A program made the translations under genes and the position numbers. The notes under the pieces were generated by a model. It did no database searches. It was given only the letters and a program-made list of their open reading frames with translations, and was not told the origin of the DNA. From a virus, in the IMG/VR virus record IMGVR_UViG_3300001199_000005, positions 64,001 to 128,000 of that record: a stretch of 64,000 nt of DNA; one strand, 5' to 3'. Of this stretch, positions 1 through 55,591 are shown piece by piece. The first letter of the stretch is position 1. Every line of letters begins with the position of its first letter.

Positions 1-69
1 CGTATGAGAATTTCGAAATCTCGTCCTCCTGGCCCCAAACCAGGTAATCTTCCTCTGATATAATACGCT
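1..69 (-). tRNA. tRNA-Pro(TGG), 3' end cut by window edge
   Basis: Anticodon arm CCTGG-TTTGGGG-CCAGG; T-arm GAGAT-TTCGAAA-TTCTC; acceptor AGCGTAT/ATACG.. Confidence 0.85.
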
Positions 70-79
70 ATATCTTGTG

Positions 80-151
80 TGTGCCTAATCAGGGATGAAC
101 TGACAACTACCTGTTCCACAAACAGGGGCTTTACATTAAGCTATAGACACC
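80..151 (-). tRNA. tRNA-His(GTG)
   Basis: G-1 plus acceptor GTGTCTA/TAGGCAC; anticodon arm CCTGT-TTGTGGA-ACAGG; atypical T-loop TTCATCC. Confidence 0.85.
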
Positions 152-169
152 ATATAACAAAAACTATTG

Positions 170-242
170 CGTTCAAGGTGGGTATCGAGCCCACTATCCT
201 TAGTTTAACAAACTACCGCTGTACCATACTAGCTTCTCGAAC
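170..242 (-). tRNA. tRNA-Asn(GTT)
   Basis: Acceptor GTTCGAG/CTTGAAC, G73; anticodon loop TTGTTAA; T-arm GTGGG-CTCGATA-CCCAC. Confidence 0.85.
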
Positions 243-249
243 AGGCATA

Positions 250-287
250 TAAACAAACAGCCCAACCTAGTTAAAGATTGGGCTGTT
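250..287 (-). terminator. Intrinsic terminator of attenuator 2, upstream of tRNA-Asn/His/Pro
   Basis: AACAGCCCAATCT-TTAACT-AGGTTGGGCTGTT followed by TGTTT; its 5' arm is also complementary to the end of the leader ORF. Confidence 0.85.
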
Positions 288-312
288 ATGAATTACTAAT
301 ACAATTGCAATA

Positions 313-378
313 TCATCCCACCCAATCTGATTGGTTATTAAGATGTTGCGGTTGTAAGAGAGAATTTATAAATTGCAT
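313..378 (-). CDS. Attenuator leader peptide MQFINSLLQPQHLNNQSDWVG (21 aa)
   Basis: ATG..TGA after an A-rich start context; Gln x4, Asn x3, Pro and His codons; overlaps the antiterminator strand AGATTGGG. Confidence 0.8.
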   Translation of the reverse strand: MQFINSLLQPQHLNNQSDWVG

Positions 379-393
379 TTGTTTTTGTTTAGT

Positions 394-1086
394 TTATTTG
401 GTTGCAGGGGTTGGATTTGAACCAACGTATCCTTTTGGGATAGCCAGCTTATGAGACTGGTGAACTAGGCCTCTATTCGACCCTGCTATATTTACAGATA
501 TTAATTTATTATCGTATTCCCAGTGATGATTAGGACAAAGAGCTATCAAATTATCAATATGATTAATAACACTTATTAAGGTATCATTTGAAAACTCAGA
601 TACTGCTTTTATATGAGCAATCTCAACGTGCTTATCGTATCCACAGATGTTACATTTCTTTTCTTTTAAAGATTCTTCAAAATTTAAACAAGCATCTTTT
701 CTTATCATAGTTCTAGCTGTTTGCCAATTTTTAGAATTTTCAAATTGAAATCCCTTTGTTCTATCCCCTACAACTCTTTTTATCTTTTTGCATTTTTTAT
801 TGCAAAACAAACTTGCGGTTGACTCAAAAACTGTACTACAATTTTTACATTGCTTTGGTTTCGATTTCCTTTTTGGACTGTTTTTATTATTAAGTTTAGC
901 GGCGCAAGAACGAGAACAAAATTTATTAATTCTATTTTTGTAATCTATTTTCTTATTACATAACTCACATCTTTTTGGATTATTGTTGTATTTTGTTTCA
1001 TTCTCTATAAGTTTGTGCTTATTTTGACATGATACATCACAGAATTTATTTTTAACTTCCTTCTTACAACAAAGACATTTATTCAC
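394..1086 (-). CDS. HNH homing endonuclease with N-terminal Cys-rich zinc-finger repeats
   Basis: CNICG..VEIAHI..NLIALCPNHHWEYD HNH core; repeated CxxC/FCxxxC motifs; sits in a tRNA cluster. Confidence 0.9.
   Translation of the reverse strand: MNKCLCCKKEVKNKFCDVSCQNKHKLIENETKYNNNPKRCELCNKKIDYKNRINKFCSRSCAAKLNNKNSPKRKSKPKQCKNCSTVFESTASLFCNKKCKKIKRVVGDRTKGFQFENSKNWQTARTMIRKDACLNFEESLKEKKCNICGYDKHVEIAHIKAVSEFSNDTLISVINHIDNLIALCPNHHWEYDNKLISVNIAGSNRGLVHQSHKLAIPKGYVGSNPTPATK
399..487 (-). tRNA. tRNA-Met(CAT), initiator-like, long variable arm, CCA encoded
   Basis: A1:A72 mismatch, A11:U24 pair, anticodon arm CCAGT-CTCATAA-GCTGG, T-arm GTTGG-TTCAAAT-CCAAC, 3' ACCA. Confidence 0.85.
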
Positions 1087-1104
1087 AGCTAGTATATTAT
1101 GCCG

Positions 1105-1136
1105 TAAATTTAATACATAAAAATTTAACTTCCAAA
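1105..1136 (-). promoter_or_regulatory. Bacteroidota-type promoter for the HNH/tRNA-Met/leader 2 block
   Basis: TTTG-N20-TAAATTTA, one mismatch to the TTTG-N19-21-TAnnTTTG consensus. Confidence 0.5.
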
Positions 1137-1156
1137 TATGAAATATTTGTAATTAG

Positions 1157-1227
1157 CACACCGTAGAAGAATCGAACTCCTATCGTTAAGGTTGGAACTT
1201 AACATGCTACCATTGCAACAACAGTGT
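1157..1227 (-). tRNA. tRNA-Trp(CCA)
   Basis: Acceptor ACACTGT/ACGGTGT, G73; anticodon arm TTAAG-TTCCAAC-CTTAA; T-loop TTCGATT. Confidence 0.88.
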
Positions 1228-1232
1228 ATTTG

Positions 1233-1322
1233 TGGGTGTAGAAGGAATCAAACCTCCGACGATTCTTTACGAATTTTGAATTTACAGTCCAATGCAGCCT
1301 AATCAACAGCTGTCGTACACCC
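1233..1322 (-). tRNA. tRNA-Tyr(GTA)
   Basis: Acceptor GGGTGTA/TACACCC, A73; anticodon arm TTGGA-CTGTAAA-TTCAA; long variable arm. Confidence 0.85.
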
Positions 1323-1329
1323 GTGTTAG

Positions 1330-1417
1330 TAGAGGGTAGGAGATTCCAACTCCTGATACGCTATTAACGTATTGCTTATTTTCAAGATAAGTTCTTCGTG
1401 ACATCCAGACACCCTCT
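1330..1417 (-). tRNA. tRNA-Ser(TGA)
   Basis: Acceptor AGAGGGT/ACCCTCT; anticodon arm CTTAT-CTTGAAA-ATAAG; long variable arm ATACG..CGTAT. Confidence 0.85.
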
Positions 1418-1421
1418 ATTT

Positions 1422-1509
1422 TGGCGGAGAAAGTAGCATTCGAAACTAATTCCTTTCAGAACACATTGTTTAGCAAACGAGTTTAAGCAACCTGCCTAAT
1501 TCATTCTCC
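1422..1509 (-). tRNA. tRNA-Ser(GCT), CCA encoded, imperfect stems
   Basis: GGAGAA../..TTCTCC-GCCA; anticodon loop TTGCTAA; long variable arm. Confidence 0.75.
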
Positions 1510-1513
1510 TTAT

Positions 1514-1551
1514 AAAACAAAAACACCTTCCTATTTACATAAGAAGGTGTT
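1514..1551 (-). terminator. Intrinsic terminator of attenuator 1, upstream of tRNA-Ser/Ser/Tyr/Trp
   Basis: AACACCTTCTTAT-GTAA-ATAGGAAGGTGTT followed by TTTGTTTT. Confidence 0.88.
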
Positions 1552-1572
1552 AGATTTTGTTTATACAATATT

Positions 1573-1632
1573 CTAGCAACCTTCTCGAAGAAAGTACCAC
1601 GAACTAGAATAAGTATAAGTAGTTGTTTTCAT
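1573..1632 (-). CDS. Attenuator leader peptide MKTTTYTYSSSWYFLREGC (19 aa)
   Basis: ATG..TAG just downstream of a consensus promoter; run TAT ACT TAT TCT AGT TCG TGG TAC; 3' end GAGAAGGTTG is complementary to the terminator 5' arm. Confidence 0.85.
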   Translation of the reverse strand: MKTTTYTYSSSWYFLREGC

Positions 1633-1650
1633 TTTAGCTTAATTTATTTG

Positions 1651-1682
1651 CAAATATAATTTGCTTAAGCTATACTTCCAAA
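1651..1682 (-). promoter_or_regulatory. Bacteroidota housekeeping sigma promoter of the tRNA operon
   Basis: Exact TTTG-N20-TATATTTG (-33/-7 consensus). Confidence 0.8.
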
Positions 1683-1684
1683 AG

Positions 1685-1921
1685 TTACCACATTTTTCTT
1701 GAACCACCACCACGACATTCGTGGTCGTTCCAAGCTCTTTTGAATGTGGCCCCTGGTTCCAGGATACGTGTTTGTTCATGCGGGCCAGCATGTGTACAGG
1801 CATCTCCCATTCTTCTTTCTGCACGTCTATGTTTACGTGACTTTAAGAATGGAGACGAAATGCTTACTCCACGATTAATTCTTCTTTGACTCCTTTTCGA
1901 GTCTGGACTTGGATTTTTCAT
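1685..1921 (-). CDS. Hypothetical basic protein
   Basis: ORF; ATG start MKNPSP preferred over the upstream TTG. Confidence 0.45.
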   Translation of the reverse strand: MKNPSPDSKRSQRRINRGVSISSPFLKSRKHRRAERRMGDACTHAGPHEQTRILEPGATFKRAWNDHECRGGGSRKMW

Positions 1922-2048
1922 ATTGCGAGATTTGTTTAATGATTTCTGACATTTCAATTAAGTGCTTAACCTTCTCATCGTTAGTCCTACACATCTTATA
2001 GGTATCGAAATACCTTTTTTCTTCCTTCTTCAGTTGTTGTATATCCAT
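1875..2048 (-). CDS. Hypothetical 57-aa coiled-coil protein (MDIQQLKKEEKRYFDTYK..)
   Basis: Manually translated ORF below the track cutoff, A-rich start context. Confidence 0.55.
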   Translation of the reverse strand: MDIQQLKKEEKRYFDTYKMCRTNDEKVKHLIEMSEIIKQISQYEKSKSRLEKESKKN

Positions 2049-2104
2049 ATTTTAGTTTATGGTTTTACTTTTTTGAAAATTTAGCACCCTCTTCTTTTAG
2101 TGTA

Positions 2105-2690
2105 AGTAGGGTCATGTAAGGTACGACTAAAGAGCTTTTAGGTTTTTAAACCAATTTGTCCTGTCCTTCGTCTTGTGATTATCAGGCTTCACTTCCTTAC
2201 GTTCTGCTGAGAACTCATTAGTATTGTAGCTGCAAAGTTAAGCTCTTTATTTGGTCCGCATTCCTTTCTCAAGGGAACAACACTTCTATCATTACTGAAT
2301 ATTCTTTACCTGCTTTACCTAAACGGTTGTTTATACAAAAGGTTCTGTACTAACTTCTTCACACTTACGCTTTTAACGCTTAATGCTTATAGCTTTCCTC
2401 CAAGCCAGTTCTCCTTAATCCTAGGAAGGTGGTCTGTCGATGGTCAGCACTATCAAGTCTAGGCTAATTACTCCTAGTTTGGTATAGAATATGCCCTGTC
2501 AATTCAAAGCTAGTATTTTTATACCTGTCAAGAGGCGGCCATCTGTAAGGATGTTCCTTTGATAAGTATGGGAATCAATGTTTAACCCAAGGTCTTTATT
2601 TATATTTGCAGTTTTCTATCCAGGTCCTAACTGGGTCAGTGTTGGAATATTTTCACAGCTTGCAGCTATGATAGGGATTGACAATAGAAA
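2105..2690 (-). ncRNA. Candidate large structured non-coding RNA (~580 nt)
   Basis: No ORF >=60 aa; crossing long-range helices 2660-2668/2227-2235 and 2240-2249/2128-2137; T-loop-like hairpin TCCCTTGAGAAAGGA; near tRNA cluster. Confidence 0.6.
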
Positions 2691-2701
2691 TAGGATACGT
2701 T

Positions 2702-3160
2702 TCATAGATTTATTTTTTTAAGTTTAATGACGGAATCTTTTTTAAACAGAATTTGAAATTCTGTTTCTATGTAGTCTGTTGCTTCAAGCTCGTAAGCAGT
2801 GAAGCCTATTTTCTCGAACTCCTTTATGTCTTCTTTGGAAAAGGCCATAAGGAGTTGGTCTAAAGATTTGTAAGCAAAGTAATATGGTCTGATTTCTTTA
2901 TAACTCATTTCACGTATCTTGGGGTCTTCAAACCTATTTGGAAATGCAGGGCTTGAATGCCTATATCTAATAGAAGCTTGATTTGGGTGCGTACTCAATA
3001 TATCAACACCGTCTACTACAGAGTTAAATGGACCTATTCCTGTCTGATTGTGCTCTATTCTGTATGCAGTAATTGGACTAGATATTAACCGCAGCGTTAT
3101 AGAATTAATTTTTGCATGAACAAATCGGAACATTTCCTGCCAGCGTATTAACTGTTCCAT
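2702..3160 (-). CDS. Hypothetical phage protein
   Basis: 152-aa ORF in a coupled minus-strand run. Confidence 0.7.
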   Translation of the reverse strand: MEQLIRWQEMFRFVHAKINSITLRLISSPITAYRIEHNQTGIGPFNSVVDGVDILSTHPNQASIRYRHSSPAFPNRFEDPKIREMSYKEIRPYYFAYKSLDQLLMAFSKEDIKEFEKIGFTAYELEATDYIETEFQILFKKDSVIKLKKINL

Positions 3161-3408
3161 GATAGAATTACTTTTGGGTCTATATTTAACTTTAAATAAA
3201 GCTTCTTCGCAAGTTCAATGTTAAGCTTGCGTTTACCTTTCAGGAATTTACAATGATTGACAACTAATCCTGTAATAGGACAAGTCAATCTGTTAGTGTT
3301 GATTAGGCCAATCCAATGATGCTTACGAAGAGATATTTTTTCCATTGTTTTACACTCTTCGATGAACTCTAGCAGAGTCAGGAATTCTAGTGGGACGTAG
3401 TTACCCAT
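3148..3408 (-). CDS. Hypothetical protein with HigA-like HTH C-terminal fragment
   Basis: C-terminus LKGKRKLNIELAKKLYLKLNIDPKVIL resembles the end of Xre/HigA HTH domains. Confidence 0.5.
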   Translation of the reverse strand: MGNYVPLEFLTLLEFIEECKTMEKISLRKHHWIGLINTNRLTCPITGLVVNHCKFLKGKRKLNIELAKKLYLKLNIDPKVILSWNS

Positions 3409-3586
3409 CTAATTTAACCGGCTCAACCTTTTTGACTAAGGATTCAAAATAAATCTCTAAAAGGTCTTCGGTGGATACACCGGCACATTCACCAGCAAAG
3501 TCAAACCATTCGTCTTGGTTAAACTTATTCTGGTAATACTTTCCTGTGGTCCATTGCATGAACGCACTAATTTCTTTCCTGCTCAT
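3401..3586 (-). CDS. Hypothetical protein
   Basis: Overlap-coupled ORF. Confidence 0.65.
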   Translation of the reverse strand: MSRKEISAFMQWTTGKYYQNKFNQDEWFDFAGECAGVSTEDLLEIYFESLVKKVEPVKLDG

Positions 3587-3980
3587 TTATTGTGATTATT
3601 ATGTTGTTATCATCTTTACAATCTACTGTAAAATATTTATTGTCGGATATAAATACGTCGTATATTAAATCATATTTATCTTCACCCCATTTTGAAAATA
3701 GAATTCTATACCCATCTTCAAAAGTTTTAAGGTTAATGCTATTAATAACACGCATCTTATCTACACCTAAATACATTACAGGCGGTTTACCATGCTCAGA
3801 TAGTCCCCAAGAACATTCTTTATTATCTTTTCTAAAGACGTAGTCAATTGGGTTATAGCTGCTTAGAAATATGCTTTCATAATCCTCTATTTCCTTTTTA
3901 CCACAGTGCTCTAAACAGGTTCTCTTGAACCCTTTGTCTACTAGATACTGTTGAAATCCGGGCAGTTTAGTTGTTTCCAT
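3567..3980 (-). CDS. Hypothetical protein
   Basis: Overlap-coupled 137-aa ORF. Confidence 0.75.
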   Translation of the reverse strand: METTKLPGFQQYLVDKGFKRTCLEHCGKKEIEDYESIFLSSYNPIDYVFRKDNKECSWGLSEHGKPPVMYLGVDKMRVINSINLKTFEDGYRILFSKWGEDKYDLIYDVFISDNKYFTVDCKDDNNIIITINEQERN

Positions 3981-4185
3981 TAATTTGTTTTATATTTGAA
4001 TTGCTTGGGTTGGTAACAACATCATCACTGTTACCTACATATACTAGTCTGCTATCGGAATCAGACGGCTCTTCGTCTAAAGGGACCATTTCGGTGTACT
4101 CAATACCATTAATGAAGTGGGGTGCTATTCCTAAGTGCGTCAAGATTCCCTTCTGGTTAACTGAGTGATAAAATTTTTTTAACAT
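3967..4185 (-). CDS. Hypothetical protein
   Basis: Overlap-coupled ORF. Confidence 0.65.
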   Translation of the reverse strand: MLKKFYHSVNQKGILTHLGIAPHFINGIEYTEMVPLDEEPSDSDSRLVYVGNSDDVVTNPSNSNIKQINGNN

Positions 4186-4552
4186 GTGGTATGGTAATAT
4201 GCTGATAATCTACACAAACAATTTTATTCTTCTTAATACCCAGGTTGCGGTCATGGCAATCTGGAACAATACTTAAGTTATAAAATTCTTGCAGTTGGTT
4301 AACTGTACAAACACCGACTTTTGGTATATACTCTGATACTAGTATCCTATCATTAAATAGACTTAAATATGGTTTAGCAAACCAACCAAGATACTGCGGA
4401 ACATCTCTCTGTACTCTTCTGTAGTTAAGAAGTTCTGCTCTATTGTTAGCACCATCATAGAATTTGTCTATTTTAATGACAAACAATTTACAGACAATGA
4501 CATCTCTATATGAGCCGCTTTTGCAAAGCAGCAACTTTAGTAGTTTAATCAT
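4157..4552 (-). CDS. Minimal protein-kinase-like protein
   Basis: VIKI (beta-3 Lys), NRAE (alpha-C Glu), DCHDRNLG catalytic loop, VCVDY (DFG-like). Confidence 0.65.
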   Translation of the reverse strand: MIKLLKLLLCKSGSYRDVIVCKLFVIKIDKFYDGANNRAELLNYRRVQRDVPQYLGWFAKPYLSLFNDRILVSEYIPKVGVCTVNQLQEFYNLSIVPDCHDRNLGIKKNKIVCVDYQHITIPHVKKILSLS

Positions 4553-4849
4553 TTAGTAGTCTATTATGTCTTCGTGACTTCCGATGATACCGCCACAATC
4601 ATGTAAGAATAATGCAAAATCATGTGTGCCAAAGCGCACATCGTCTTGAAAGACGAGGACAATTTTGTTATCCAGGATTTGCATTATCTCCGTATTATCG
4701 GTGATATAATCGTAGACTTGTCTAGGGACTTTTAATCCCCGTATGCGTGCTGTTTCATATGGGTAGTACCCAATAAGGGTAAAACCGTCTAGTTTGATGG
4801 GAGTTTCGAGCTCTCTAAAGCTCTTGGCTCTTTTTGTTTTCTCTGCCAT
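4553..4849 (-). CDS. Hypothetical protein
   Basis: 98-aa ORF in operon. Confidence 0.7.
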   Translation of the reverse strand: MAEKTKRAKSFRELETPIKLDGFTLIGYYPYETARIRGLKVPRQVYDYITDNTEIMQILDNKIVLVFQDDVRFGTHDFALFLHDCGGIIGSHEDIIDY

Positions 4850-4858
4850 ATTAATTTT

Positions 4859-5080
4859 TTAATTAAAACCAGTTATCCAATCTCTCATCTGGCGCTCAGT
4901 TGAGAGAAAACCGCTGAATAATAATATTGCACCTAATTGTAAAGCGGAATGCCCTTGTGTTTCAGGATGTTTATTCATGTCACTTAGAAAACTTGCGAAT
5001 GCTTCGCTTGTATTACCAGCATCCACATATTCCAACGCTCTCTGTTTGCACCATTCAAGGTGTTCTTTTCTTGTTGCCAT
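4859..5080 (-). CDS. Hypothetical phage protein
   Basis: 73-aa ORF in operon. Confidence 0.75.
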   Translation of the reverse strand: MATRKEHLEWCKQRALEYVDAGNTSEAFASFLSDMNKHPETQGHSALQLGAILLFSGFLSTERQMRDWITGFN

Positions 5081-5086
5081 GTTGAA

Positions 5087-5266
5087 TCAATTTAAATATT
5101 TTTCAGGTATATCTAAATAACCCCACTGTATATGAATAAAAGGAAGTATAAGGTTATGTGTTATTCCTGAAATTTCATGTATATCTGTGGAATAAATAAC
5201 CTTCCAGTACCCAAGTCCAATTATTAAACGAGGGTCAAATTTAAATGTCTTAAGTCTCTTTGTCAT
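5087..5266 (-). CDS. Hypothetical 59-aa protein (MTKRLKTFKFDPRLIIGLGYW..)
   Basis: Manually translated; fills the gap between neighbouring ORFs. Confidence 0.55.
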   Translation of the reverse strand: MTKRLKTFKFDPRLIIGLGYWKVIYSTDIHEISGITHNLILPFIHIQWGYLDIPEKYLN

Positions 5267-5507
5267 TTTTCATTAGGGGTTTAGGTAATGGTTGCCAATG
5301 TGTGGCTAAGAAATGGTGTGATACACTGCTTGAGGGGCTACTCATTAGACGTTTACCGTCGTAAGACATAGCTAGTGCTATTTTAGCACCGTTTTCATCA
5401 CCATCTGGAAAGTACCCTATTACAAGTGTTTCTATCGGCGGCATCTTCTTAGTGACGGGTATCCATCTACTGAAGAGAGAGGCGATAAAGTTTATTATCT
5501 TCTTCAT
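5250..5507 (-). CDS. DUF551-like phage protein
   Basis: WIPVTKKMPP...THWQPLPKP signature. Confidence 0.75.
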   Translation of the reverse strand: MKKIINFIASLFSRWIPVTKKMPPIETLVIGYFPDGDENGAKIALAMSYDGKRLMSSPSSSVSHHFLATHWQPLPKPLMKNDKET

Positions 5508-5809
5508 GTCCGAAATTAGTGGTTATGTTTTATAAAAAGCTTTACGAAATTCCACAATAGGGTCTAAATTGTTATCTATTGCGTACCAGATGACTTCAAT
5601 CGTATCATCTATATCTATGCCTTTAATCTCTGCTATTGAGATTAGTAGCAATGCTACTAAAGTATTCATAATTTAGTTGTCTAGTTTTACTATGATTTAA
5701 ATTGTGATATTAAAAACAGTCTTTGTATTAGTAAATGAAATAGCCGCAGTGCATAACACCACGGTTATCTGATTAACCAATTAACATATCTTTAACCCTA
5801 ATGGGTAAT

Positions 5810-6075
5810 TAGTTCAAAACAAAATCCGCCACCGCTAACCAAGCATAAGCTGGTTCAATCGAGCGATGACGGATTGTTTCTCGGCAGCAGCATGGTACAT
5901 GCATCATGGGCTCTAAGGCCATAGGTGTAAACTGCGTGCGGAGGTTTTTGGGCCCTTGTACTTCGGGACCTTTTTTACTGGCTTGTATTACTAATGCGAC
6001 GCCAGATTTTTTCATTCAATGCGCATAGACCAGATTCACCGAGGCTCAACAAAGTTAAGTCACGGCATAAGGTTC
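5810..6075 (-). ncRNA. Candidate structured RNA downstream of tRNA-Lys
   Basis: GC-rich hairpins with A-rich linkers, ending in AATCCGTCATCGCT..AGCGGTGGCGGATT plus TTGTTTTG. Confidence 0.4.
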
Positions 6076-6088
6076 TGATTTACCTTCG

Positions 6089-6161
6089 TGCAACATACAG
6101 GGTTCGAACCTGTGACCCTCTCATTAAGAGTGAGATACTCTACCAACTGAGCTAATGTTGC
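6089..6161 (-). tRNA. tRNA-Lys(CTT)
   Basis: Canonical cloverleaf: GCAACAT/ATGTTGC, TCTCA-CTCTTAA-TGAGA, TTCGAAC. Confidence 0.95.
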
Positions 6162-6267
6162 TTGAGGGCGTTACCCTCGTTTCTTTTTGTTTGTCAGCCG
6201 TATACTCTAATTACTTACCCATTTATGTAAAAACAATGTAAGTATACAATCATCATCAGGTATTTTG

Positions 6268-6341
6268 CCGCAGCTAAGGGAATCGAACCCATAGTAACCA
6301 ACCCAAGACTCTTAGACTTTCGTAGCATCTTGTAGCTGCGG
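6268..6341 (-). other. tRNA-like element: acceptor stem and T-arm, no normal D or anticodon arm
   Basis: CCGCAGCTA/TAGCTGCGG stem, GGG-TTCGATT-CCC T-arm, internal CAAGAT..GTCTTG stem. Confidence 0.55.
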
Positions 6342-6391
6342 GTTTGTTTGTGTACTTTAAAATGTTAGGCTGCCACTTCACTAGCTCCGAC

Positions 6392-6739
6392 TTACCCAGT
6401 CCCAGAGCTACAAAGATTATCATATCTTACAGGGTATACATACTTTTTCCCCGGCACTTCAACATAACTATGAAAGCCATCTGTGTCTTTTATAAAACAC
6501 ACTACTTTGGACTTGTTATGTTTCTGTGGGAATAGTCGTGATTCTGTATCGAATTCGATAAATAGCTCGTCTTGAAGTACGAGTTCAAAATCGTTTTCAA
6601 ATTCCTCTACAGGGTAATTTTTTCCCGTATTGGCTACTACGCAACTATCGTTTTTACTAACGATAACTCCTACAATGAGGAGATTTGTTCTGTGTTGCCC
6701 GTCAACATGGACAAGCTGCTTTTCTTTTGTCTTTATCAT
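6392..6739 (-). CDS. Hypothetical protein
   Basis: 115-aa ORF, A-rich start context. Confidence 0.7.
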   Translation of the reverse strand: MIKTKEKQLVHVDGQHRTNLLIVGVIVSKNDSCVVANTGKNYPVEEFENDFELVLQDELFIEFDTESRLFPQKHNKSKVVCFIKDTDGFHSYVEVPGKKYVYPVRYDNLCSSGTG

Positions 6740-6947
6740 TTTTTTTTAGTTTGGTTAAATTAAAAAAGCTGGCATGGTTGTACAGTCCACGCCAGCCACA
6801 TTCTGCCTTATAATGGTGACTAGTCCACTCAATGGGACTACATTACAACTACCCCCTGCTTTTGGATAAATGGGTCTAACCAACCCTGGCATTTGTTGTG
6901 GGTATATTTCAACCCGGTTTTTGGGCTTTCGCCCGTTCTAAAATAAA

Positions 6948-7101
6948 AAACAAGGAAGTACCCGAAGGTAGAAGCTCTTCCTTGTTTATGAGGTCCTTAT
7001 GCGTTGACCTATTAAGGTCAACCGCTCGACCAGGAATGTGCTGCCCTGCACTAGCGTAGAACAAAAGGAGTACCGTAAAGGTAAGAGAATCTCCTTTGTT
7101 T
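6948..7101 (-). repeat. Two copies of a bulged hairpin motif
   Basis: AAACAAGGAAG..TACC-TTCG-GGTA-CTTCCTTGTTT (6948-6988) and AAACAAAGGAG..TACC-TTTAC-GGTA-CTCCTTTTGTT (7060-7101). Confidence 0.65.
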
Positions 7102-7323
7102 AAAGTCAGGCTGGCCCGTAATATTTTATTACAGCATCGGCGGCCTGTGGTTTTTGTGCTCTCCTACACACGATGGGGACAGTAGCGAGTGCCAAATAAT
7201 GTGGCTCCGCTTTTTTGAGTTTTTCCCCGTGCTTTCCAGCATGCTCGGCTTAGGCTTTATTTATACTCATGCCACCGACTATATGGGTTTATGAGTTATC
7301 CTGGGGTTTTACTCCAGGATATT

Positions 7324-7554
7324 TTAGGTAAAGATTACAAGTGGTTCATCTTGTTCCAGAATTACAACATTGATATACCCGTTATCACCAGATAGGTTCA
7401 TGTTATATTCCGACAAAGTTGCACCATACGCTTCAATTTCATTTGTTGCATGTGACCACCATGCTTGTTGTGAAACCCAGGAACAAGCTTCCTGAAAATT
7501 GTTGTGGTTAAACACTACTGTTGCATGTAACCACCCTGAAAATACTAGTATCAT
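7324..7554 (-). CDS. Hypothetical protein
   Basis: 76-aa ORF. Confidence 0.6.
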   Translation of the reverse strand: MILVFSGWLHATVVFNHNNFQEACSWVSQQAWWSHATNEIEAYGATLSEYNMNLSGDNGYINVVILEQDEPLVIFT

Positions 7555-7674
7555 ATATAATGGTTAATGTTAGTACTATTATGTAGAGATTAAACTACAA
7601 TACTGTAAAATTTCTAGTTTTTACATTCATGCAACTGTGTTTTTCACACCCAGCATTATATTGTAGTTTTAAAG

Positions 7675-7860
7675 TTAAACTTTTGGTCGTTGTTTGCGCA
7701 CGGGCTGTACGTTGTGGAAGCCTTTTTGTAAGATTCCATTGCCCTCTTTGTTCCAAATGTGGCTGCCATCTGGTCGTGTCTTGTGCGCCAAGCCCATTGC
7801 GTTCAAAATGTCCATGTTTGGCTTTTGAGTGCGCCTGCTTCTTCTTTGTGATGCTTTCAT
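7675..7860 (-). CDS. Hypothetical basic protein
   Basis: 61-aa ORF after an A-rich leader. Confidence 0.6.
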   Translation of the reverse strand: MKASQRRSRRTQKPNMDILNAMGLAHKTRPDGSHIWNKEGNGILQKGFHNVQPVRKQRPKV

Positions 7861-8001
7861 TGTTGTTTTCAGTTGATTTTGAGTTGATTTTTATTTATTC
7901 TTCAAGACTGTAGCGAATATTTGATGTGTTGGTATGAAAATTTTTAGCTTTTTACCACTTTCACTTGTTTTATTGTGATACCCTTGTGGCAAGGGAAGAA
8001 C

Positions 8002-8292
8002 TTAGCGCTTGGTTACTTCATAAGTGAAGATGCCAGTGGCAAATTCACGTGTTTGGTCGCAAGACAACTCTTTACCACGCATCTCTGCGGGAATATCAAG
8101 CTGGACCTCGGTTACACTGGCGCAATGACAGGCCAAGTGCATTGGCAATACGCCTAGCACATGCTTATTGTCAAGTACAGTCGCGTCTACAACGTGTTGC
8201 AATACAATTCCCCAAGTGTATCCTTCTTGCGAAAGATATTCGAGGAGTCCACTATGGCGTGACACTACTATATCTACAAATTTTGTTTCCAT
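8002..8292 (-). CDS. Csx16 (Cas_VVA1548)-like protein, putative ring nuclease
   Basis: VSRHSGLLEYL..V..GVLPMHLA..LDIPAEMRGKELS matches the Csx16 motifs as I recall them; likely start METKFV at 8292. Confidence 0.7.
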   Translation of the reverse strand: METKFVDIVVSRHSGLLEYLSQEGYTWGIVLQHVVDATVLDNKHVLGVLPMHLACHCASVTEVQLDIPAEMRGKELSCDQTREFATGIFTYEVTKR

Positions 8293-8513
8293 CACATTCT
8301 GGCATTTTAATGGGTTAGCCTTCCCGTTTAGTTTTAGTGCTCTTTCTATTAAGCCCAGCATCAGGGCACCACAGTCATCAGAAACTATTTATTTTTACGT
8401 GCTGTGGACACGACATACTTAGTATGCGAAAAATAAGCCCCATTGTACACTTGCCTTATTACAGGCTGGGCTTTTTATTTATCCTCGTCGTGCATACGAG
8501 GTTTTCCATCCGC

Positions 8514-8795
8514 TCAGTATAGAGGTTCTTCGACCTCATCTACTAACTCAATATAGCCTAATCGAAGGCCTTTATCGAGTTCAGCAAGACTCTTTTGAGT
8601 CCAAGCCTCTGGACGAGACTGAACATCAGCAGGAGTCTGCTGGTCGCGGATTGCCCTATAGACCCACTCTACTGAGTGGTCTTCTGGGCGTCGTAATCCT
8701 TTCGCCATATAGATTAATGTTAGGAAGCCGGTTGTCCAGTTATCAGATATTGCGATTGCAATAGCAAGATTCGAACTCACATCTCTCCCTAACAT
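8514..8795 (-). CDS. Hypothetical protein
   Basis: ORF; the real start may be MAKGLRR at 8708. Confidence 0.55.
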   Translation of the reverse strand: MLGRDVSSNLAIAIAISDNWTTGFLTLIYMAKGLRRPEDHSVEWVYRAIRDQQTPADVQSRPEAWTQKSLAELDKGLRLGYIELVDEVEEPLY

Positions 8796-8797
8796 TG

Positions 8798-8871
8798 TCT
8801 TCCCTACAAGATTCGAACTTGTAACCTACTGCTTAGAAAGCAGACGCTCTATCCAGTTGAGCTAAGGGAAG
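8798..8871 (-). tRNA. tRNA-Arg(TCT)
   Basis: Canonical cloverleaf: CTTCCCT/AGGGAAG, CTGC-TTTCTAA-GCAG, TTCGAAT. Confidence 0.95.
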
Positions 8872-8926
8872 ATGTTGGTGCTCCGTTTGAAGACTTTACA
8901 CATTTGCAAGGTGTGCTACCTCTTTT

Positions 8927-8949
8927 CTCTCTTAGTCAGACTAAGAGAG
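8927..8949. repeat. Perfect inverted repeat, 11-bp arms
   Basis: CTCTCTTAGTC-A-GACTAAGAGAG with no U-tract on either strand. Confidence 0.7.
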
Positions 8950-8966
8950 TAGGGCAAAGTTATGCC

Positions 8967-9344
8967 CTATTTGCTGACCGAGTCTAACCTGACTCGGTGC
9001 ATAATCCTACTGACTGGGTAGGTCAGCAATGTCGCAGGATTGAATCCTGCAGCATACATCTCTAACCAGTCTTTGGTTGTCAACTCACGTCCTTGAACGT
9101 GAACATGGCAACCGTGTAGGACTATGTTCCAGTGCGGAGCGTACTGGTCCACTAGCTCCTGATAGGAGCCTGTAGCAATACGCTTCCGCCCTTCGACAGC
9201 GAACCAGACCAGCAGCTTGGGAGCTTCCAAGTCCAACTTTTGTTGGAGTTCTTGGCGTTGCTCTGCAGCCAGAACCAATTGCTGAGTGCGAGTCAGCTTT
9301 TGGTCCTGTTTGCTGGTCTGGTTCAATCCCAGACTAATAAGCAT
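8967..9344 (-). CDS. Hypothetical protein with Gln-rich N-terminus
   Basis: Likely start MLISLG inside the 194-aa track ORF. Confidence 0.6.
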   Translation of the reverse strand: MLISLGLNQTSKQDQKLTRTQQLVLAAEQRQELQQKLDLEAPKLLVWFAVEGRKRIATGSYQELVDQYAPHWNIVLHGCHVHVQGRELTTKDWLEMYAAGFNPATLLTYPVSRIMHRVRLDSVSK

Positions 9345-9559
9345 ATATATTTGTTTTATGTGGACTATCTCAATCACCACATCGTATTCCCCATGATTAC
9401 GGATTTTGCCGTATGGGAACTTATCTGTCGTCCAGACAGGAATGCTTTTATGTCGCTTAGGATTATTAACGACAACCCCTAACACAGTATGCAGATTCAA
9501 TATGAGTGCTGCATAAACTAAGCTGTGCTTTTTACTACCATGTAGGGACACCTTTCGGC

Positions 9560-9872
9560 GTTTGTTTTTAGTGGGTTTCCCCTCCTTTCACGGCTTTAAC
9601 GTGCAACCTTCTTTCAACCTGCTATTTCAAGGTGTCTGTCATTAGTTGGCGCATCCACTCTTTTGAAGTGAATGGGTAGTACCTTTTAACTAGAGGTTAC
9701 TAGGAGAGATTGGAGATACTCCAAGAACGATTTGCTCCTTTCTCAAGGGAGCTGTGGAACCCCGAAGGGTCTACTATTTAAGCATAGTTGCTTCCCGTCA
9801 TTCAGGATATGATACATGCACCTTTGCAGTGCAGTGTTCACGTAAGGATATGACTTCCTGATACGTGATTAT
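9560..9872 (-). ncRNA. Candidate structured non-coding RNA (~310 nt)
   Basis: ORF-free, many hairpins with GNRA/UUCG loops; shares the 15-nt hairpin TCCCTTGAGAAAGGA with the 2.1-2.7 kb element. Confidence 0.5.
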
Positions 9873-9877
9873 TTCGA

Positions 9878-10126
9878 TTAGCACCCAGCCCGCTCCCTTT
9901 GAGCGTTTAATTGCTCAAGGGTGATGGTGTGCGGTACCTTTCCGCAATTGTACTTGTAGTACATTATTGCGAATTTTTTAATGTTGGATAACGTCCTGTC
10001 AGGGACGATTCCAACGAAAATAGATACATACTTTTTCAAGTATGTATCGTGCCCCAATTGTATTGGGGCTTTTTCAAGTTTTAGAGCGTTCAACAACGCT
10101 CTAAAAATAACTATGTTCTGTTCCAT
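9878..10126 (-). CDS. Hypothetical protein
   Basis: 82-aa ORF. Confidence 0.65.
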   Translation of the reverse strand: MEQNIVIFRALLNALKLEKAPIQLGHDTYLKKYVSIFVGIVPDRTLSNIKKFAIMYYKYNCGKVPHTITLEQLNAQRERAGC

Positions 10127-10266
10127 ATATATAAATTATAAGTTAAACCACCTTACTACATTTCGGGTGGTAGTATTTGTTAGTTTTTCACGTTTTTAAA
10201 CGCACTAATACTCATTTCAAGATGAGATATAAGCCACATAAAAACGCATAAAACTTTCAGGGATTC

Positions 10267-10566
10267 TCACCCTAATACCCAGTGCTGTACCTTGTTAAAG
10301 GGAAGCGCACCATTCTCTTTCATCTCGATAGGGATTTCTATCTTGACTAATGTCGACTCACGACAATGACGAATCACCAATGCGTCCATTGGTTTGGATG
10401 GAGTAAGAAGCGCTCTAAGAACCTCCATCCCGCTGCGTTTGGATTCTACCATTGGGAAACCCCACAATGGTCGCAGTCTTTGTTCCTTCTCTGGTGTGGA
10501 GAAATCCACACTTCAATTTCGGGTTAGAACAAAACCCTTTGGGTTTTTCTTTCTTTTGTTTGTCAT
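10267..10566 (-). pseudogene. Hypothetical gene with one in-frame TGA at codon 18
   Basis: MTNKRKKNPKGFVLTRN-TGA-SVDFSTPEK.. is continuous in frame with track ORF 10267..10509. Confidence 0.45.
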
Positions 10567-10803
10567 GGCGGTATTTGTTTTAAATCCATGTTTTTGGGGT
10601 TGGTTAGACCTTCCACGACAAACTGAGAAAAATGGATAGCTCTTGCGAGTTTTACAGTACCCTTGCGCTGATTACGTCAGCCTATACTCTTTCGAGCGGT
10701 ACACCCATACGGATTTTAAAGTGTTTACTCACTTGGGAAAAAAATTGGGGAAAAAGCAGGCGTATCGGCCATGTAGCTCTAAAGCTATCGGCTAGTCCGC
10801 CTT

Positions 10804-10859
10804 AAAAAAAAGGGAAAGGATTGATGGTCAGAGAGTTAGCTCTCTGAATCAATCCTTTT
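10804..10859 (-). terminator. Intrinsic terminator after 10868..11335
   Basis: AAAGGATTGAT-TCAGAGAG-CTAA-CTCTCTGA-CC-ATCAATCCTTT followed by CCCTTTTTTTT. Confidence 0.7.
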
Positions 10860-10867
10860 TTGCCCTA

Positions 10868-11335
10868 TTACCTTGCTTGCTTCACCTTCGGTGCTGCTTC
10901 TTCAATATCCACCACCAATGGATTTGGTGGTACGTCTTTTTTAGCTTTAGCTTTAGTTTTCGCAATTTTCGGCAACTCCTTGCCGAACCTTGCCCAAAAC
11001 TCTTCCTCGGTTGGGACAACAGACAAGAAAGTTGTAATGTCTTTTGTTTCGATAGTGGCTCTAATATACTCTACAATCCTTACTTGTCGGGTCATTTTGC
11101 GACCCCCCTTCTTCCCTTCAACCCAAACAGGGGTTAGTAACCCTGTAATTTTAATCCCGTGGTCTAACTTAGTCGGGTCATTGTAGTTTGGCTGCGAAAT
11201 GCCCTCGTTTGTGCAAGTGGGCTGTATAGCCCGCTTGAAACAGTATTGCCCTGATGAAATGCGTCCGAAGGTCGCATTAGATTCAATAACTTTGTCATTA
11301 GGGATTGTTGTTCCCTGAAATGTCCATTTTTCCAT
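10868..11335 (-). CDS. Hypothetical protein, first gene of the left arm
   Basis: 155-aa ORF with Lys/Ala-rich tail. Confidence 0.75.
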   Translation of the reverse strand: MEKWTFQGTTIPNDKVIESNATFGRISSGQYCFKRAIQPTCTNEGISQPNYNDPTKLDHGIKITGLLTPVWVEGKKGGRKMTRQVRIVEYIRATIETKDITTFLSVVPTEEEFWARFGKELPKIAKTKAKAKKDVPPNPLVVDIEEAAPKVKQAR

Positions 11336-11726
11336 AACTTTTGCTCGGTTGTTCGATACCGAAAAACGTTTTTTTATGTATTTATAGTACCGTTTATGGG
11401 GGGGTATACGTTATCATGCACTCTCCCTCAAAATATACATATAATTTTTTTTTGGAAAAAAAAAATTTAATAGGTTATATTCTCTCCTTCAGAATACAGA
11501 ACTAAAAATTTTTTTATAAATTTTTTTCAGTCTAAGTCTTTCTATGGCTAAAGACTGACATCTTTTTAATGGCAGGAATAGACAGATGGAAAATTACTCA
11601 CTACTAGATTATATTAAGAAATGATTACTAATAACACATAGAAGGAATCACTTTCTAAAATAAGTAAAAAAACAGTGTTTCCTGCAAGCATAGGCACATT
11701 TTTAAGGTTTTTGATAATAGTCCTTA

Positions 11727-11788
11727 TACTACACCATGGGGTATCCCATACTACACCCTGTAGTATAACGTACCACACCCTGTAGTAT
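11727..11788. repeat. Three palindromic iteron/operator-like repeats at a 22-bp period
   Basis: TACTACACCATGGGGTA (11727), TACTACACCCTGTAGTA (11749), TACCACACCCTGTAGTA (11771). Confidence 0.8.
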
Positions 11789-11841
11789 AGCTTTATTTAT
11801 ACTATTAAATAATAGTATTAGGATATATGGTTTTTATACTA

Positions 11842-11849
11842 TATATTTG
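11842..11849 (+). promoter_or_regulatory. Bacteroidota -7 promoter box for the rightward operon
   Basis: TATATTTG about 20 nt upstream of the RepL-like ATG; no clear -33 box. Confidence 0.6.
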
Positions 11850-11867
11850 TAGTATAAATCAAACATT

Positions 11868-12326
11868 ATGAATGTAAATAAAATAATATCAGAAGAAAAA
11901 GTTAATATAGAAACAGGAGAACTATCTGTTCACCATAAGACAATTTCATACACACTAAAAAAAGAGCCTGAATTTGCCAAGCTTTACTTTAAAGATATTT
12001 GTAATTTACAGCTATTAAGTTCATCATGTCATTTAGTATTTTGGCAGATAGCAGAAATAATGGACTATAAAACTAATGAGGTTGTATTAGTAAAATCTAT
12101 AAAGGATAAGATAGCAACAAAACTTAAATGTAGTATTAAACTGGTTGAAAAGTGTGTGGACGAGCTTTATAGAAAAGAATTTCTATTTAGAACCGAGCGT
12201 TCTACTTACGTAGTTAACCCAAATTATATTTGTAAAGGTACTTGGGCAGATGTTGAAAAGATAAAAATGGAAATAGTATACACAGAAAAGGGTAGAGATA
12301 TAGTAACAACTTTTGAATCTAAATGA
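11868..12326 (+). CDS. RepL-like winged-helix replication/maintenance protein
   Basis: VNIETGE N-terminus, HTH region, YVVNPNYICKG C-terminal motif. Confidence 0.75.
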   Translation: MNVNKIISEEKVNIETGELSVHHKTISYTLKKEPEFAKLYFKDICNLQLLSSSCHLVFWQIAEIMDYKTNEVVLVKSIKDKIATKLKCSIKLVEKCVDELYRKEFLFRTERSTYVVNPNYICKGTWADVEKIKMEIVYTEKGRDIVTTFESK

Positions 12327-14785: not shown

Positions 14786-15624
14786 ATCCAGAGACTTACG
14801 ATATATTAGTAGGCAATATAGCGTATAATGATGAAGTTCACGTTTATTGGGATTTAATGACAGATGAAAGATACACTTCAGTAACAACATTAATAGGTAG
14901 ATATAAAAAACCATTTGATGGCGATTTCTGGTCTGATTATAAAGCAATTGAAGAACTGCTAGAAGAATTCTTTAAACAATACAGAGGAGGATTTGCATCT
15001 TTTGAATTAATGATTAAAGATTTCAAGTCTAAACTTAAACCAGGCTCTAAGGACCATCTTAGATTTATCGCCATTAAAACAGCTCTTCTACAACAATGGG
15101 ATTTTACTAGAGACCAATCTTGTGTTAGAGGAACTGCTTTTCATAAAGCAAAAGAAGATTTCTGGAAATCTAAAGACTATCACTTTACTCAAGGTGGTTT
15201 TTATGATACAGCAAAAACTAATTTGATTATTGACCCAGCAGACGGTATATATTCTGAATTACTTCTATATAACCATGAGTATAAACTTGCAGGTCAAGCT
15301 GATTTAGTTCTTAAGAAAGGAGGAAAGATAATCATTAGAGATTATAAGACTAACAAAGAATTGAAGTTAAAGTCTTACTATAATAGGAAGACAGATAAAT
15401 ATGATATGATGTTAGGACCACTTTCTAACGTACAAGATTGTAACTACCAACATTATGTCGTACAATTGTCAACATATGCTTGGATGATTCAACAACTTGG
15501 AGATTATGAGATAGAAGGATTATACCTAGACCATTTCGACCATAAAGGAAATTATACAGAATATAAAGTTCCATATAAGAAAGACACAGTAATAAGAATG
15601 TTAAACGATTTTAAAGCACAGTAA
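14776..15624 (+). CDS. PD-(D/E)xK exonuclease, RecB/Cas4-like
   Basis: YTSVTT, RGTAFH, AGQADLV, IRDYKT, QLSTYA. Confidence 0.85.
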   Translation: MPINPETYDILVGNIAYNDEVHVYWDLMTDERYTSVTTLIGRYKKPFDGDFWSDYKAIEELLEEFFKQYRGGFASFELMIKDFKSKLKPGSKDHLRFIAIKTALLQQWDFTRDQSCVRGTAFHKAKEDFWKSKDYHFTQGGFYDTAKTNLIIDPADGIYSELLLYNHEYKLAGQADLVLKKGGKIIIRDYKTNKELKLKSYYNRKTDKYDMMLGPLSNVQDCNYQHYVVQLSTYAWMIQQLGDYEIEGLYLDHFDHKGNYTEYKVPYKKDTVIRMLNDFKAQ

Positions 15625-17984: not shown

Positions 17985-19568
17985 ATGTTAATACCTAAAG
18001 CACAAAATGGAAAGAGATTATTTCCAAAGTATCAACAAAATGGTAATCTTGATGAAATATTTTATAAGGGTAAATATGGTAATACTGAACCAAACACTAA
18101 TGAGGGAGATATTATATTAAGTTCTTTATATTATAAATTCCCAAAATTAAAATCATTTGGGAAAACAGTAGTTAAGAAAGATACTACTTTTAGACCTGAT
18201 TTAGAGGGATATGGTAATATAGAGTATTTCGACCCAGAACAAGATAGTGTTTGGTATTCAGAAACAAAATCTTATGCACACCCTAAAAAAGGTTTTAGTG
18301 GGATAATATATAACCAAAATGTTAAAGACCCATACGCAGCTGTTTTTTTAGACTTAGTATCTCACGGTAAGAGTTCTGATTCAGAATTTATGAGATTAAA
18401 AAAAGAGTTTAGAAAAGCAACTGAAAAAACTAGGCAGGATGATGCTGAGTACTTTTATAAAAAAGACCTAAAAGAAGGCTTTGCTATAGATGGCAAAGAG
18501 CGCTGGCTGAATAATTATTATGATGGTTTGTTAAGAGCTTCAATATATCCAAATTTGCCCGCAGAATATATAAATAAAAATTCTGAATATTATATTGAAT
18601 ACGATGGTTTAAGTGATGAAAGTAAACAACTAGGTGTACAAATTATGAATTATTTAAAGAACTCAGACGAGTCTGAATTAGATAAAAGCTACAAACAAAA
18701 GATGTTAAAAACAACTAATAAACATAAAAATGGAGGTTCGCTTATTCCTAAATTTCAGAACAGTGGTAAAATTCCATCATTTGTAACTAAGCCGAAAAAC
18801 CATATTGAAGAACAAATGAAAAAGGATTGGTTAAAGAGAAATCCTGAGCAGGCTGTTAAATTAGGTGAGTACATGAAAACACTCCCTGAAATTATAATAT
18901 ATGACTCCAAAGATGATTATACTAGCCAGCAGCTTTCCACAATGTCGCCCAAACATAGAGAGTTATGGTATAAATATGGTAAGCCAACTATAGTACCATT
19001 TCAAATAAATACCAGCAATCCTTATGAATATATAGCTGCACAATATAGTCCAGAAGATAATACTTTAAAGTTACCATTATATAATTTACCAATAAGAGAA
19101 GTGCAGGATAAATTAGATGTGGCTGAAAAGAGATATAAAGAATTAGGCGACTATATATATAAATCTTATGACAATAGTCACACAATACCTGATATAGTAT
19201 GGAATGAACGTGAGAAATTGAGCGAATTAATTCATTCTCTTTTACAACTTAAAAGAATACAAAGACCTAAAGATGCTGATTTTTTAGCAGAGTTAAGCCA
19301 TGCGTATCAATATAATGCTCCTGGGATAAAAGGCAAAAGATTTATAGACCTCTTAAATTTGGAGGGCAAAAAGAGACTAGTACAATATAAAAATCAAAAA
19401 GAATTTCAAGATTATGAATATGATACTCCAGGTACAAGAGAATACGAAGCACATAAAATTATTCAACCTTGGTTATTGAAAGAATCTTTTAAACCTATCC
19501 AATTAGGGCCTTCATATTATATACCCATCCAAAAATTTGGAGGAATATTAACACCGAAACATAAATGA
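17985..19568 (+). CDS. Putative virion cargo protein with zincin-like module and GG-LIPK motifs
   Basis: AELSHAYQY..EYEAH; motifs MLIPKAQNG, KNGGSLIPKFQNSG, KFGGILTPK. Confidence 0.55.
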   Translation: MLIPKAQNGKRLFPKYQQNGNLDEIFYKGKYGNTEPNTNEGDIILSSLYYKFPKLKSFGKTVVKKDTTFRPDLEGYGNIEYFDPEQDSVWYSETKSYAHPKKGFSGIIYNQNVKDPYAAVFLDLVSHGKSSDSEFMRLKKEFRKATEKTRQDDAEYFYKKDLKEGFAIDGKERWLNNYYDGLLRASIYPNLPAEYINKNSEYYIEYDGLSDESKQLGVQIMNYLKNSDESELDKSYKQKMLKTTNKHKNGGSLIPKFQNSGKIPSFVTKPKNHIEEQMKKDWLKRNPEQAVKLGEYMKTLPEIIIYDSKDDYTSQQLSTMSPKHRELWYKYGKPTIVPFQINTSNPYEYIAAQYSPEDNTLKLPLYNLPIREVQDKLDVAEKRYKELGDYIYKSYDNSHTIPDIVWNEREKLSELIHSLLQLKRIQRPKDADFLAELSHAYQYNAPGIKGKRFIDLLNLEGKKRLVQYKNQKEFQDYEYDTPGTREYEAHKIIQPWLLKESFKPIQLGPSYYIPIQKFGGILTPKHK

Positions 19569-55121: not shown

Positions 55122-55133
55122 TTTTAAACAACA

Positions 55134-55526: not shown

Positions 55527-55531
55527 TAATT

Positions 55532-55570
55532 AAAGGGGGCAACCCTTTTAGCCCCTTTTATCTACTTTTT
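55532..55570 (+). terminator. Terminator
   Basis: AAAGGGGGC..GCCCCTTTT followed by a T-rich tail. Confidence 0.7.
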
Positions 55571-55591
55571 AAACTTTAACAAGAACTAAAA

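Follow-up and report, generated by a model that had tools for sequence, protein, structure and literature searches.

Two putative leader-peptide attenuators in series on a phage tRNA operon

We analysed a 64,000-nucleotide (nt) stretch of viral DNA, hereafter the window, which comprises bases 64001-128000 of the IMG/VR virus record IMGVR_UViG_3300001199_000005 (152,878 bp, linear, estimated completeness 85%). The first 1682 nt of the window carry, on the minus strand, a tRNA operon in which two small open reading frames (ORFs) are each followed by a strong terminator hairpin with a T tract and then by a block of tRNA genes (Table 1). We refer to each combination of leader ORF, hairpins and terminator as a cassette, and number the two in the direction of transcription. 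Cassette 1 stands between a promoter-like site and a block made up of a Ser(GCT)-like element, tRNA-Ser(TGA), tRNA-Tyr and tRNA-Trp; an HNH homing-endonuclease-like ORF and a tRNA with a CAT anticodon come next, and cassette 2 precedes tRNA-Asn, tRNA-His and tRNA-Pro. The genes behind both terminators are thus tRNAs and not amino-acid biosynthesis or synthetase genes. An earlier reading, made by a model from the sequence alone, had listed these minus-strand features in this order, and every one of them is present where it had been placed. Genes for tRNAs were called with ARAGORN, in default and relaxed settings, and with Rfam covariance models.

Table 1. Positions of the operon features in the window and of the leaders found in a second phage, LR756501.1 (L016 and L017 are loci of that phage; L017 covers record positions 166000-210000)
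Feature	Sequence	Position	Strand	Remarks
Promoter-like site	window	1651-1682	-	in the 52-nt gap between an upstream ORF of 78-90 amino acids (aa) and leader 1
Leader ORF 1	window	1573-1632	-	19 codons + TAG; codons 3-13 all Thr/Tyr/Ser/Trp
1:2 hairpin, cassette 1	window	1574-1599	-	region 2 core 1586-1579; alternative partner 1548-1541
Terminator 1	window	hairpin 1522-1551; with T tract 1512-1551	-	13-bp stem, 4-nt loop, -16.6 kcal/mol
Weak type II tRNA-like element	window	1423-1510	-	encoded CCA end; most likely divergent tRNA-Ser(GCT)
tRNA-Ser(TGA)	window	1329-1417	-	relaxed ARAGORN only; clean cloverleaf
tRNA-Tyr(GTA), type II	window	1232-1322	-	ARAGORN
tRNA-Trp(CCA)	window	1156-1227	-	Rfam, 50.4 bits
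HNH homing-endonuclease-like ORF	window	394-1086	-	GTG start, 230 aa; an insertion in the array
tRNA with anticodon CAT	window	399-487	-	Rfam, 42.4 bits
Leader ORF 2	window	313-378	-	21 codons + TGA; core with Gln/Pro/His/Asn codons
1:2 hairpin, cassette 2	window	321-334	-	334-330 pairs with 326-322; region 2 is 328-321; alternative partner 282-275
Terminator 2	window	hairpin 256-287; with T tract 246-287	-	13-bp stem, 6-nt loop, -20.3 kcal/mol
tRNA-Asn(GTT)	window	169-242	-	41.3 bits; relaxed ARAGORN
tRNA-His(GTG)	window	79-150	-	ARAGORN and Rfam
tRNA-Pro(TGG)	window	1-69	-	runs 4 nt past the window edge; complete at genome 63997-64069
Leader	L017	2510-2605	reverse	Lys/His/Ser/Phe/Trp-rich core; tRNAs Trp, His, His, Phe, Lys, Ser
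Leader	L017	14844-14912	reverse	Leu-rich core; five Leu tRNAs
Leader	L017	35787-35867	reverse	Ile/Met/Gln/Glu-rich core; tRNAs Glu, Met, Gln x3, Met x3, Ile, Glu x3
Leader	L016	14864-14992		Thr/Pro/Ala/Val/Arg/Gly-rich core; tRNAs Arg, Ala, Thr, Val, Gly, Pro

Both leader regions fold well beyond shuffled sequences (z of -4.9 and -3.9), each into a small hairpin between regions 1 and 2 (1:2) and the 13-bp terminator (3:4). In each cassette region 2 has an alternative partner, which sits in the 5′ arm of terminator 1 or 2, respectively. The resulting 2:3 duplex amounts to -10.6 kcal/mol in cassette 1 and -13.8 kcal/mol in cassette 2, values that none of 200 shuffles reaches. When the 70 nt upstream of all 48 terminator-like hairpins of the genome were compared with the 5′ arm of the respective hairpin, against shuffles, a significant antiterminator complement was found at only two of them, which are the two cassettes (the next best value is -8.4). 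We also searched for a short ORF (sORF) with an ATG start, 8-45 codons long, whose end lies at most 12 nt from the complement. In both cassettes the sORF stop adjoins the region 2 complement, and complement and stop occur jointly in 2/2 cassettes versus 0/46 other hairpins of the genome. The cassette terminators are, moreover, the two longest stems on their strand. Judged by a position matrix of start contexts built from 86 long ORFs, the leader ATGs resemble those of genes: among gene starts leader 1 falls at the 58th percentile and leader 2 at the 48th, and among all ATGs they fall at the 97.5th and 95.8th percentiles, respectively.

The layout of ribosome-mediated attenuation that the sequence-only reading had described, with a leader ORF and 1:2, 2:3 and 3:4 helices, is borne out in both cassettes, whose elements span only ~120-130 nt, ORF included. 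Its statement that the two share no sequence holds as well: homology between them is rejected by local alignment (p = 0.44). No Rfam leader family (Trp_leader, His_leader, Thr_leader, Leu_leader and others) and no T-box (RF00230) was matched at E up to 1 within window positions 1-12000. Rfam hits to PyrR (E 0.76) and VrrA (E 0.55) over the terminators lie far below the gathering scores and were rejected.

The geometry of the cassettes was modelled by constraint folding of the RNAs with a ribosome footprint masked. In this model the terminator forms in free RNA, and also when a ribosome is present whose A site is occupied by the stop codon. With the ribosome placed at Tyr6, Ser9, Ser11 or Trp12 of leader 1, or at Pro10, His12 or Asn14 of leader 2, the 2:3 helix is obtained in the nascent RNA, at modelled energies of -10.9 to -19.8 kcal/mol, and it forms before region 4 is made. 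At the last regulatory codons (Tyr13 and Asn15) the footprint begins to cover region 2 and the 2:3 helix is weaker. Terminator 1 ends 11 nt ahead of the first tRNA-like element and terminator 2 ends 13 nt ahead of tRNA-Asn. This distance of 11-13 nt between T tract and next tRNA leaves no space for a promoter, and read-through is therefore the sole route to expression of the tRNAs.

Residues 3-13 of leader 1 read TTTYTYSSSWY, and the core of leader 2 reads QPQHLNNQ. In leader 1, codons for Ser, Tyr and Trp account for seven of eight consecutive positions. Among the 979 ATG-initiated ORFs of 12-35 codons in the whole genome, which we used as background, just one reaches this density, and it is the leader itself. 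In the two other frames of leader 1 the match is absent (scores of 0 and 0.45). The sequence-only reading had held that all seven tRNAs directly behind a terminator have cognate codons clustered in their leader. Each confirmed tRNA behind a terminator does have at least one cognate leader codon; one of the seven tRNAs, however, is doubtful.

The doubtful tRNA is the element directly behind terminator 1, which was missed by Rfam and by default ARAGORN and is read as Thr(CGT) by ARAGORN under very relaxed settings. Its most plausible identity is a Ser(GCT) that has diverged and possibly decayed, since it matches the Ser(GCT) of another viral record, IMGVR_UViG_3300024520_000050, in loop context, position in the array, encoded CCA and its long variable arm. 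There (L050, 19154-19440) the order Ser(GCT)-Ser(TGA)-Tyr(GTA) is likewise found; the Ser(GCT) of that array is well formed, and neither a leader nor a terminator lies upstream of it.

Leaders of this kind recur in LR756501.1, a public 735-kb uncultured phage that is unrelated to the virus of the window. It was reached by a blastn hit of the HNH gene, and its locus was chosen without regard to leaders. LR756501.1 has 66 tRNAs in several arrays, four of which start behind an ATG-initiated ORF and, after it, a strong terminator that carries a T tract. We compared leaders and tRNA blocks in a 6 x 6 table comprising these four cassettes and both window cassettes. For leaders paired with their own blocks the match (-log10 P) was 1.56 and 1.03 in the window and 2.44, 2.13, 4.66 and 5.73 in LR756501.1, while off-diagonal pairings gave values of about 0. 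The diagonal ranks second among the 720 permutations, and the one permutation that beats it does so because two blocks both contain Leu. Out of frame, the match drops in five of the six leaders, the weak exception being window cassette 2. The four LR756501.1 leaders outscore all 32 control pairs of an sORF and a tRNA block, which came from a deliberately loose pipeline run on 36 DUF7873-linked IMG/VR loci and served as empirical null (maximum match score 1.76, median 0.28), and their match is much stronger than that of the window leaders.

No obvious leader precedes a fifth array of LR756501.1. The cassettes of this phage have no relatives in the phage collection beyond the duplicate record LR756503.1. 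Likeness between the window cassettes and those of LR756501.1 is limited to the 3′ arm of the terminator and the T tract. In all six cassette terminators the T tract is interrupted by a single G (TTTTGTTTT or TGTTTGTTT); the interrupted tracts lie at 1521-1512 and 255-246 of the window, at ~15068-15077 of L016, and on the reverse strand of L017 at ~2655-2665, 14978-14990 and 35920-35929.

We propose, at a probability of about 0.6, that the cassettes are two serial ribosome-mediated transcription attenuators on one phage tRNA operon, which place tRNA supply under negative feedback. Transcription would initiate ahead of leader 1, at the promoter-like site, or enter from upstream, and a ribosome would translate the short ORF as RNA polymerase proceeds. 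If decoding is fast, the ribosome would arrive at the stop codon and cover region 2, the 13-bp terminator would form, and the downstream tRNAs would not be made. If decoding is slow within the regulatory codons (those for Tyr, Ser and Trp plus Thr in cassette 1, and for Pro, His and Asn plus Gln in cassette 2), the ribosome would cover region 1 only. Region 2, being free, would then pair with the 5′ arm of the terminator, the polymerase would read through, and RNase P would excise the tRNAs. A shortage of tRNA would open the gate and sufficiency would close it; the feedback on tRNA supply would be negative because the sensed codons are partly read by the tRNAs behind the stop. Thus, the phage would probably make the gated tRNAs mainly when the matching codons are decoded slowly. 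In the window, architecture outweighs codon statistics as support for this model. We infer that the leaders are translated, that the terminators work conditionally and that the tRNA pool is the signal.

A number of observations weigh against the proposal. The switch would also be thrown by amino-acid starvation or by anything else that slows translation, so that tRNA supply as the signal is an interpretation. The codon match of cassette 2 is marginal (p about 0.04-0.1): Asn, His and Pro occupy four of eight codons, a density that 43 of the 979 genome sORFs reach, and the +1 frame scores 0.79 versus 1.03 in frame. Over whole peptides both leaders are modestly enriched: cassette 1 has a -log10 P of 1.56, which 1/32 controls reach, and cassette 2 one of 1.03, which 3/32 reach. 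The most enriched residues are Thr in leader 1 and Gln in leader 2 (four of each), and no tRNA-Thr or tRNA-Gln is present anywhere in the 85%-complete record. The suggestion of the sequence-only reading that stalling de-represses exactly the replacement tRNAs is therefore too strong and is not borne out. The Thr and Gln codons, being A-rich and G-poor, may instead leave the leader's 5′ portion free of structure. The Leu(TAG)/Leu(TAA) pair, which together with a second HNH gene follows Pro(TGG) beyond the window edge, has no cassette, nor have the separate Lys and Arg tRNAs. The promoter-like site matches the two-box pattern of Bacteroidota (TTTG, a 20-nt spacer and TATATTTG) and also scores 9/12 as a sigma-70 type promoter. 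The Bacteroidota pattern is not enriched genome-wide (10 found versus 6.9 in shuffles), and it is therefore the position of the site alone that argues for function. No RNA sequencing run is listed as containing the stretch.

Comparative data also count against the proposal in part. Scans of IMG/VR with the 152-aa protein of a neighbouring gene, the portal protein, a PRTase-like protein and a word from tRNA-Trp found no close relative. No leader/terminator cassette is present in crAss001, which has a 23-tRNA array, and the 63 hairpin-before-tRNA sites at the 36 DUF7873-linked loci include no convincing cassette. The design is therefore not general. We conclude that the cassette design is real as a class and not universal.

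Other searches for relatives were uninformative with respect to the cassettes. In a set of 5.8 billion proteins the 152-aa neighbour matched only itself. MT835470.1, distant kin by capsid, has no tRNAs, and four crAss-like phages of the Suoliviridae have scattered tRNAs only. The nearest tRNA-bearing relative by capsid is MT835492.1 (41%), in which a 54-aa ORF (11617-11790 in L005/L010) precedes tRNA-Asn, tRNA-Asp and tRNA-Thr. This ORF has a lipoprotein-type signal and an Asn/Asp/Thr/Ser-rich tail, and it ends inside a weak palindromic hairpin. We judged it uninformative as a cassette and probably a coincidence. A similar lipoprotein-like ORF stands ahead of a tRNA-Thr at 18924-19049 of locus L039.

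Three other explanations were weighed against attenuation. It is possible, though unlikely, that the terminators are conditional but controlled by a phage or host antitermination factor or by the timing of infection, with the sORFs and their codons incidental. Phages commonly use protein antiterminators, and in both cassettes a strong terminator stands directly between promoter and genes; the marginal match of cassette 2 and the unmatched Thr and Gln codons also speak for such control. It leaves unexplained why region 2 adjoins the stop of an ORF with a gene-like start in 2/2 cassettes and at no other significant terminator of the genome, and why the match in LR756501.1 is in frame and specific to the array behind each leader. 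In addition, no known RNA sensor family matches the cassettes.

We consider it improbable that the attenuators exist specifically to detect the loss of host tRNAs to anticodon nucleases such as PrrC, PARIS AriB and retron PtuAB, which would be a special case of the attenuation model. It is known that tRNAs encoded by phages rescue infection from defences that target tRNAs (PMC10264068, PMC11464382), and the mechanism we propose would respond to any drop in decodable tRNA. However, no sequence link connects the cassettes with any defence system, Thr and Gln codons would be sensed yet the corresponding tRNAs are not supplied, and simple supply-and-demand feedback accounts for the same facts.

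Finally, unregulated hairpins, acting as leaky terminators or in processing or stability to fix the ratios of the tRNA blocks, with sORFs and 2:3 complements arising by chance, are a very unlikely explanation: sORFs are indeed frequent in AT-rich DNA (the 979 counted above), and some sORF ends near six of the 48 terminator-like hairpins, but the joint features are found in 2/2 cassettes against 0/46 hairpins elsewhere, the 1:2 hairpins are present, the starts are gene-like, the Ser/Tyr/Trp cluster is reached by 1/979, and the design recurs in an unrelated phage.

Preference for ribosome-mediated attenuation bears on a fifty-year debate about phage tRNAs, in which codon compensation is set against escape from tRNA-targeting defences, and in which the control of tRNA expression is hardly known. 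If the model is right, the phage itself reveals which codons it treats as limiting, and tRNA genes join the targets of classic attenuation, with the product acting on its own sensor. Being small (~130 nt) and self-contained, the cassettes could act as codon-specific sensors of decoding speed. A broader and rather doubtful idea, which we advance only tentatively, is that attenuation of tRNA genes is a recurrent, undescribed strategy of large phages, sensing supply codon by codon and topping up the missing tRNAs, including those lost to nucleases.

Other features of the operon and its surroundings concern the HNH gene and further tRNAs. The HNH ORF matches the HNH family PHROG 8048 (E 8e-6) and resembles an HNH gene in a tRNA array of LR756501.1. 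It remains open across the entire tRNA with the CAT anticodon, which takes up its last ~30 codons, and its stop lies 5 nt beyond this tRNA. The CAT-anticodon tRNA is of type II, its long variable arm being unusual for a tRNA of Met or Ile2. Neither tRNA-Lys nor tRNA-Arg(TCT) of the window has a leader or terminator, and both stand in a region of higher G+C (0.39-0.41). At 6267-6340 on the minus strand, ~100 nt upstream of tRNA-Lys(CTT), lies a degenerate tRNA-like element, called Leu(AAG) by relaxed ARAGORN and scoring 13 bits with Rfam. Outside the window, ~8-9 kb before its start, genome positions 54973-55794 contain further tRNA-like hits, two by Rfam (47 and 29 bits) and one by relaxed ARAGORN, which reads a TTA anticodon. 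Immediately upstream of the operon, in an otherwise gene-dense arm, ~650 nt of the window (2049-2701) are without an ORF of at least 50 codons.

The single sequencing run that contains the stretch is groundwater metagenome DNA, which is probably its source. The host of the phage is probably a member of the Bacteroidota, judging by three features: the distantly crAss-like character of its portal and major head proteins, gene starts that are A-rich and without Shine-Dalgarno sequences, and the presence in a Cytophagaceae genome of a homologue, 63% identical, of a neighbouring DUF7873 protein. DUF7873 proteins of 60-69% identity are also encoded on contigs of 130-176 kb.

The cassettes can be compared with several known systems. 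Among amino-acid biosynthesis leaders, thrL senses Thr and Ile and the ilvGMEDA leader senses Ile, Leu and Val; trpL, hisL and pheL are related. The window cassettes resemble the multivalent thr and ilv leaders in their clustered codons for several amino acids, in the 1:2, 2:3 and 3:4 helices with an intrinsic terminator, and in a stop codon positioned so that an unhindered ribosome covers region 2. Unlike them, they are located in a phage and would control tRNAs and not biosynthetic enzymes, and their output, tRNA, would feed directly on the sensor, decoding speed. Their regulatory runs are mixed, unlike the long homopolymeric runs of enterobacterial leaders, and they have neither a sequence nor an Rfam match to any leader family. 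In E. coli, attenuation at the pheM leader of pheST controls a synthetase and responds to charged tRNA. There, too, a leader peptide attenuates a component of the decoding machinery, but pheST involves one amino acid and a cellular genome, whereas the window leaders are multivalent and the controlled genes are tRNAs.

T-boxes contain no ORF; they bind uncharged tRNA directly, by means of Stem I and the T-box bulge. They share with the window elements a terminator/antiterminator switch that reports the state of specific tRNAs and translation-related targets. Compared with T-boxes, the window elements are far too short and match no T-box model, and their correspondence to tRNAs is frame-dependent, an effect that is clear in cassette 1 and only weak in cassette 2. 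Among published tRNA arrays that can be induced, the trn operon of Anabaena sp. PCC 7120 (PMC8421152, PMC10272220) comes nearest; it, too, is an accessory array, which by default is silent and is activated by impaired translation. Its control is ascribed to the repressor TrcR and to direct repeats at the promoter, and a leader, attenuation or a terminator is mentioned in neither paper (PMC8421152, PMC10272220). Our literature search found no published attenuator on tRNA genes. The respect in which the window cassettes would be new is that the genes behind them are tRNAs.

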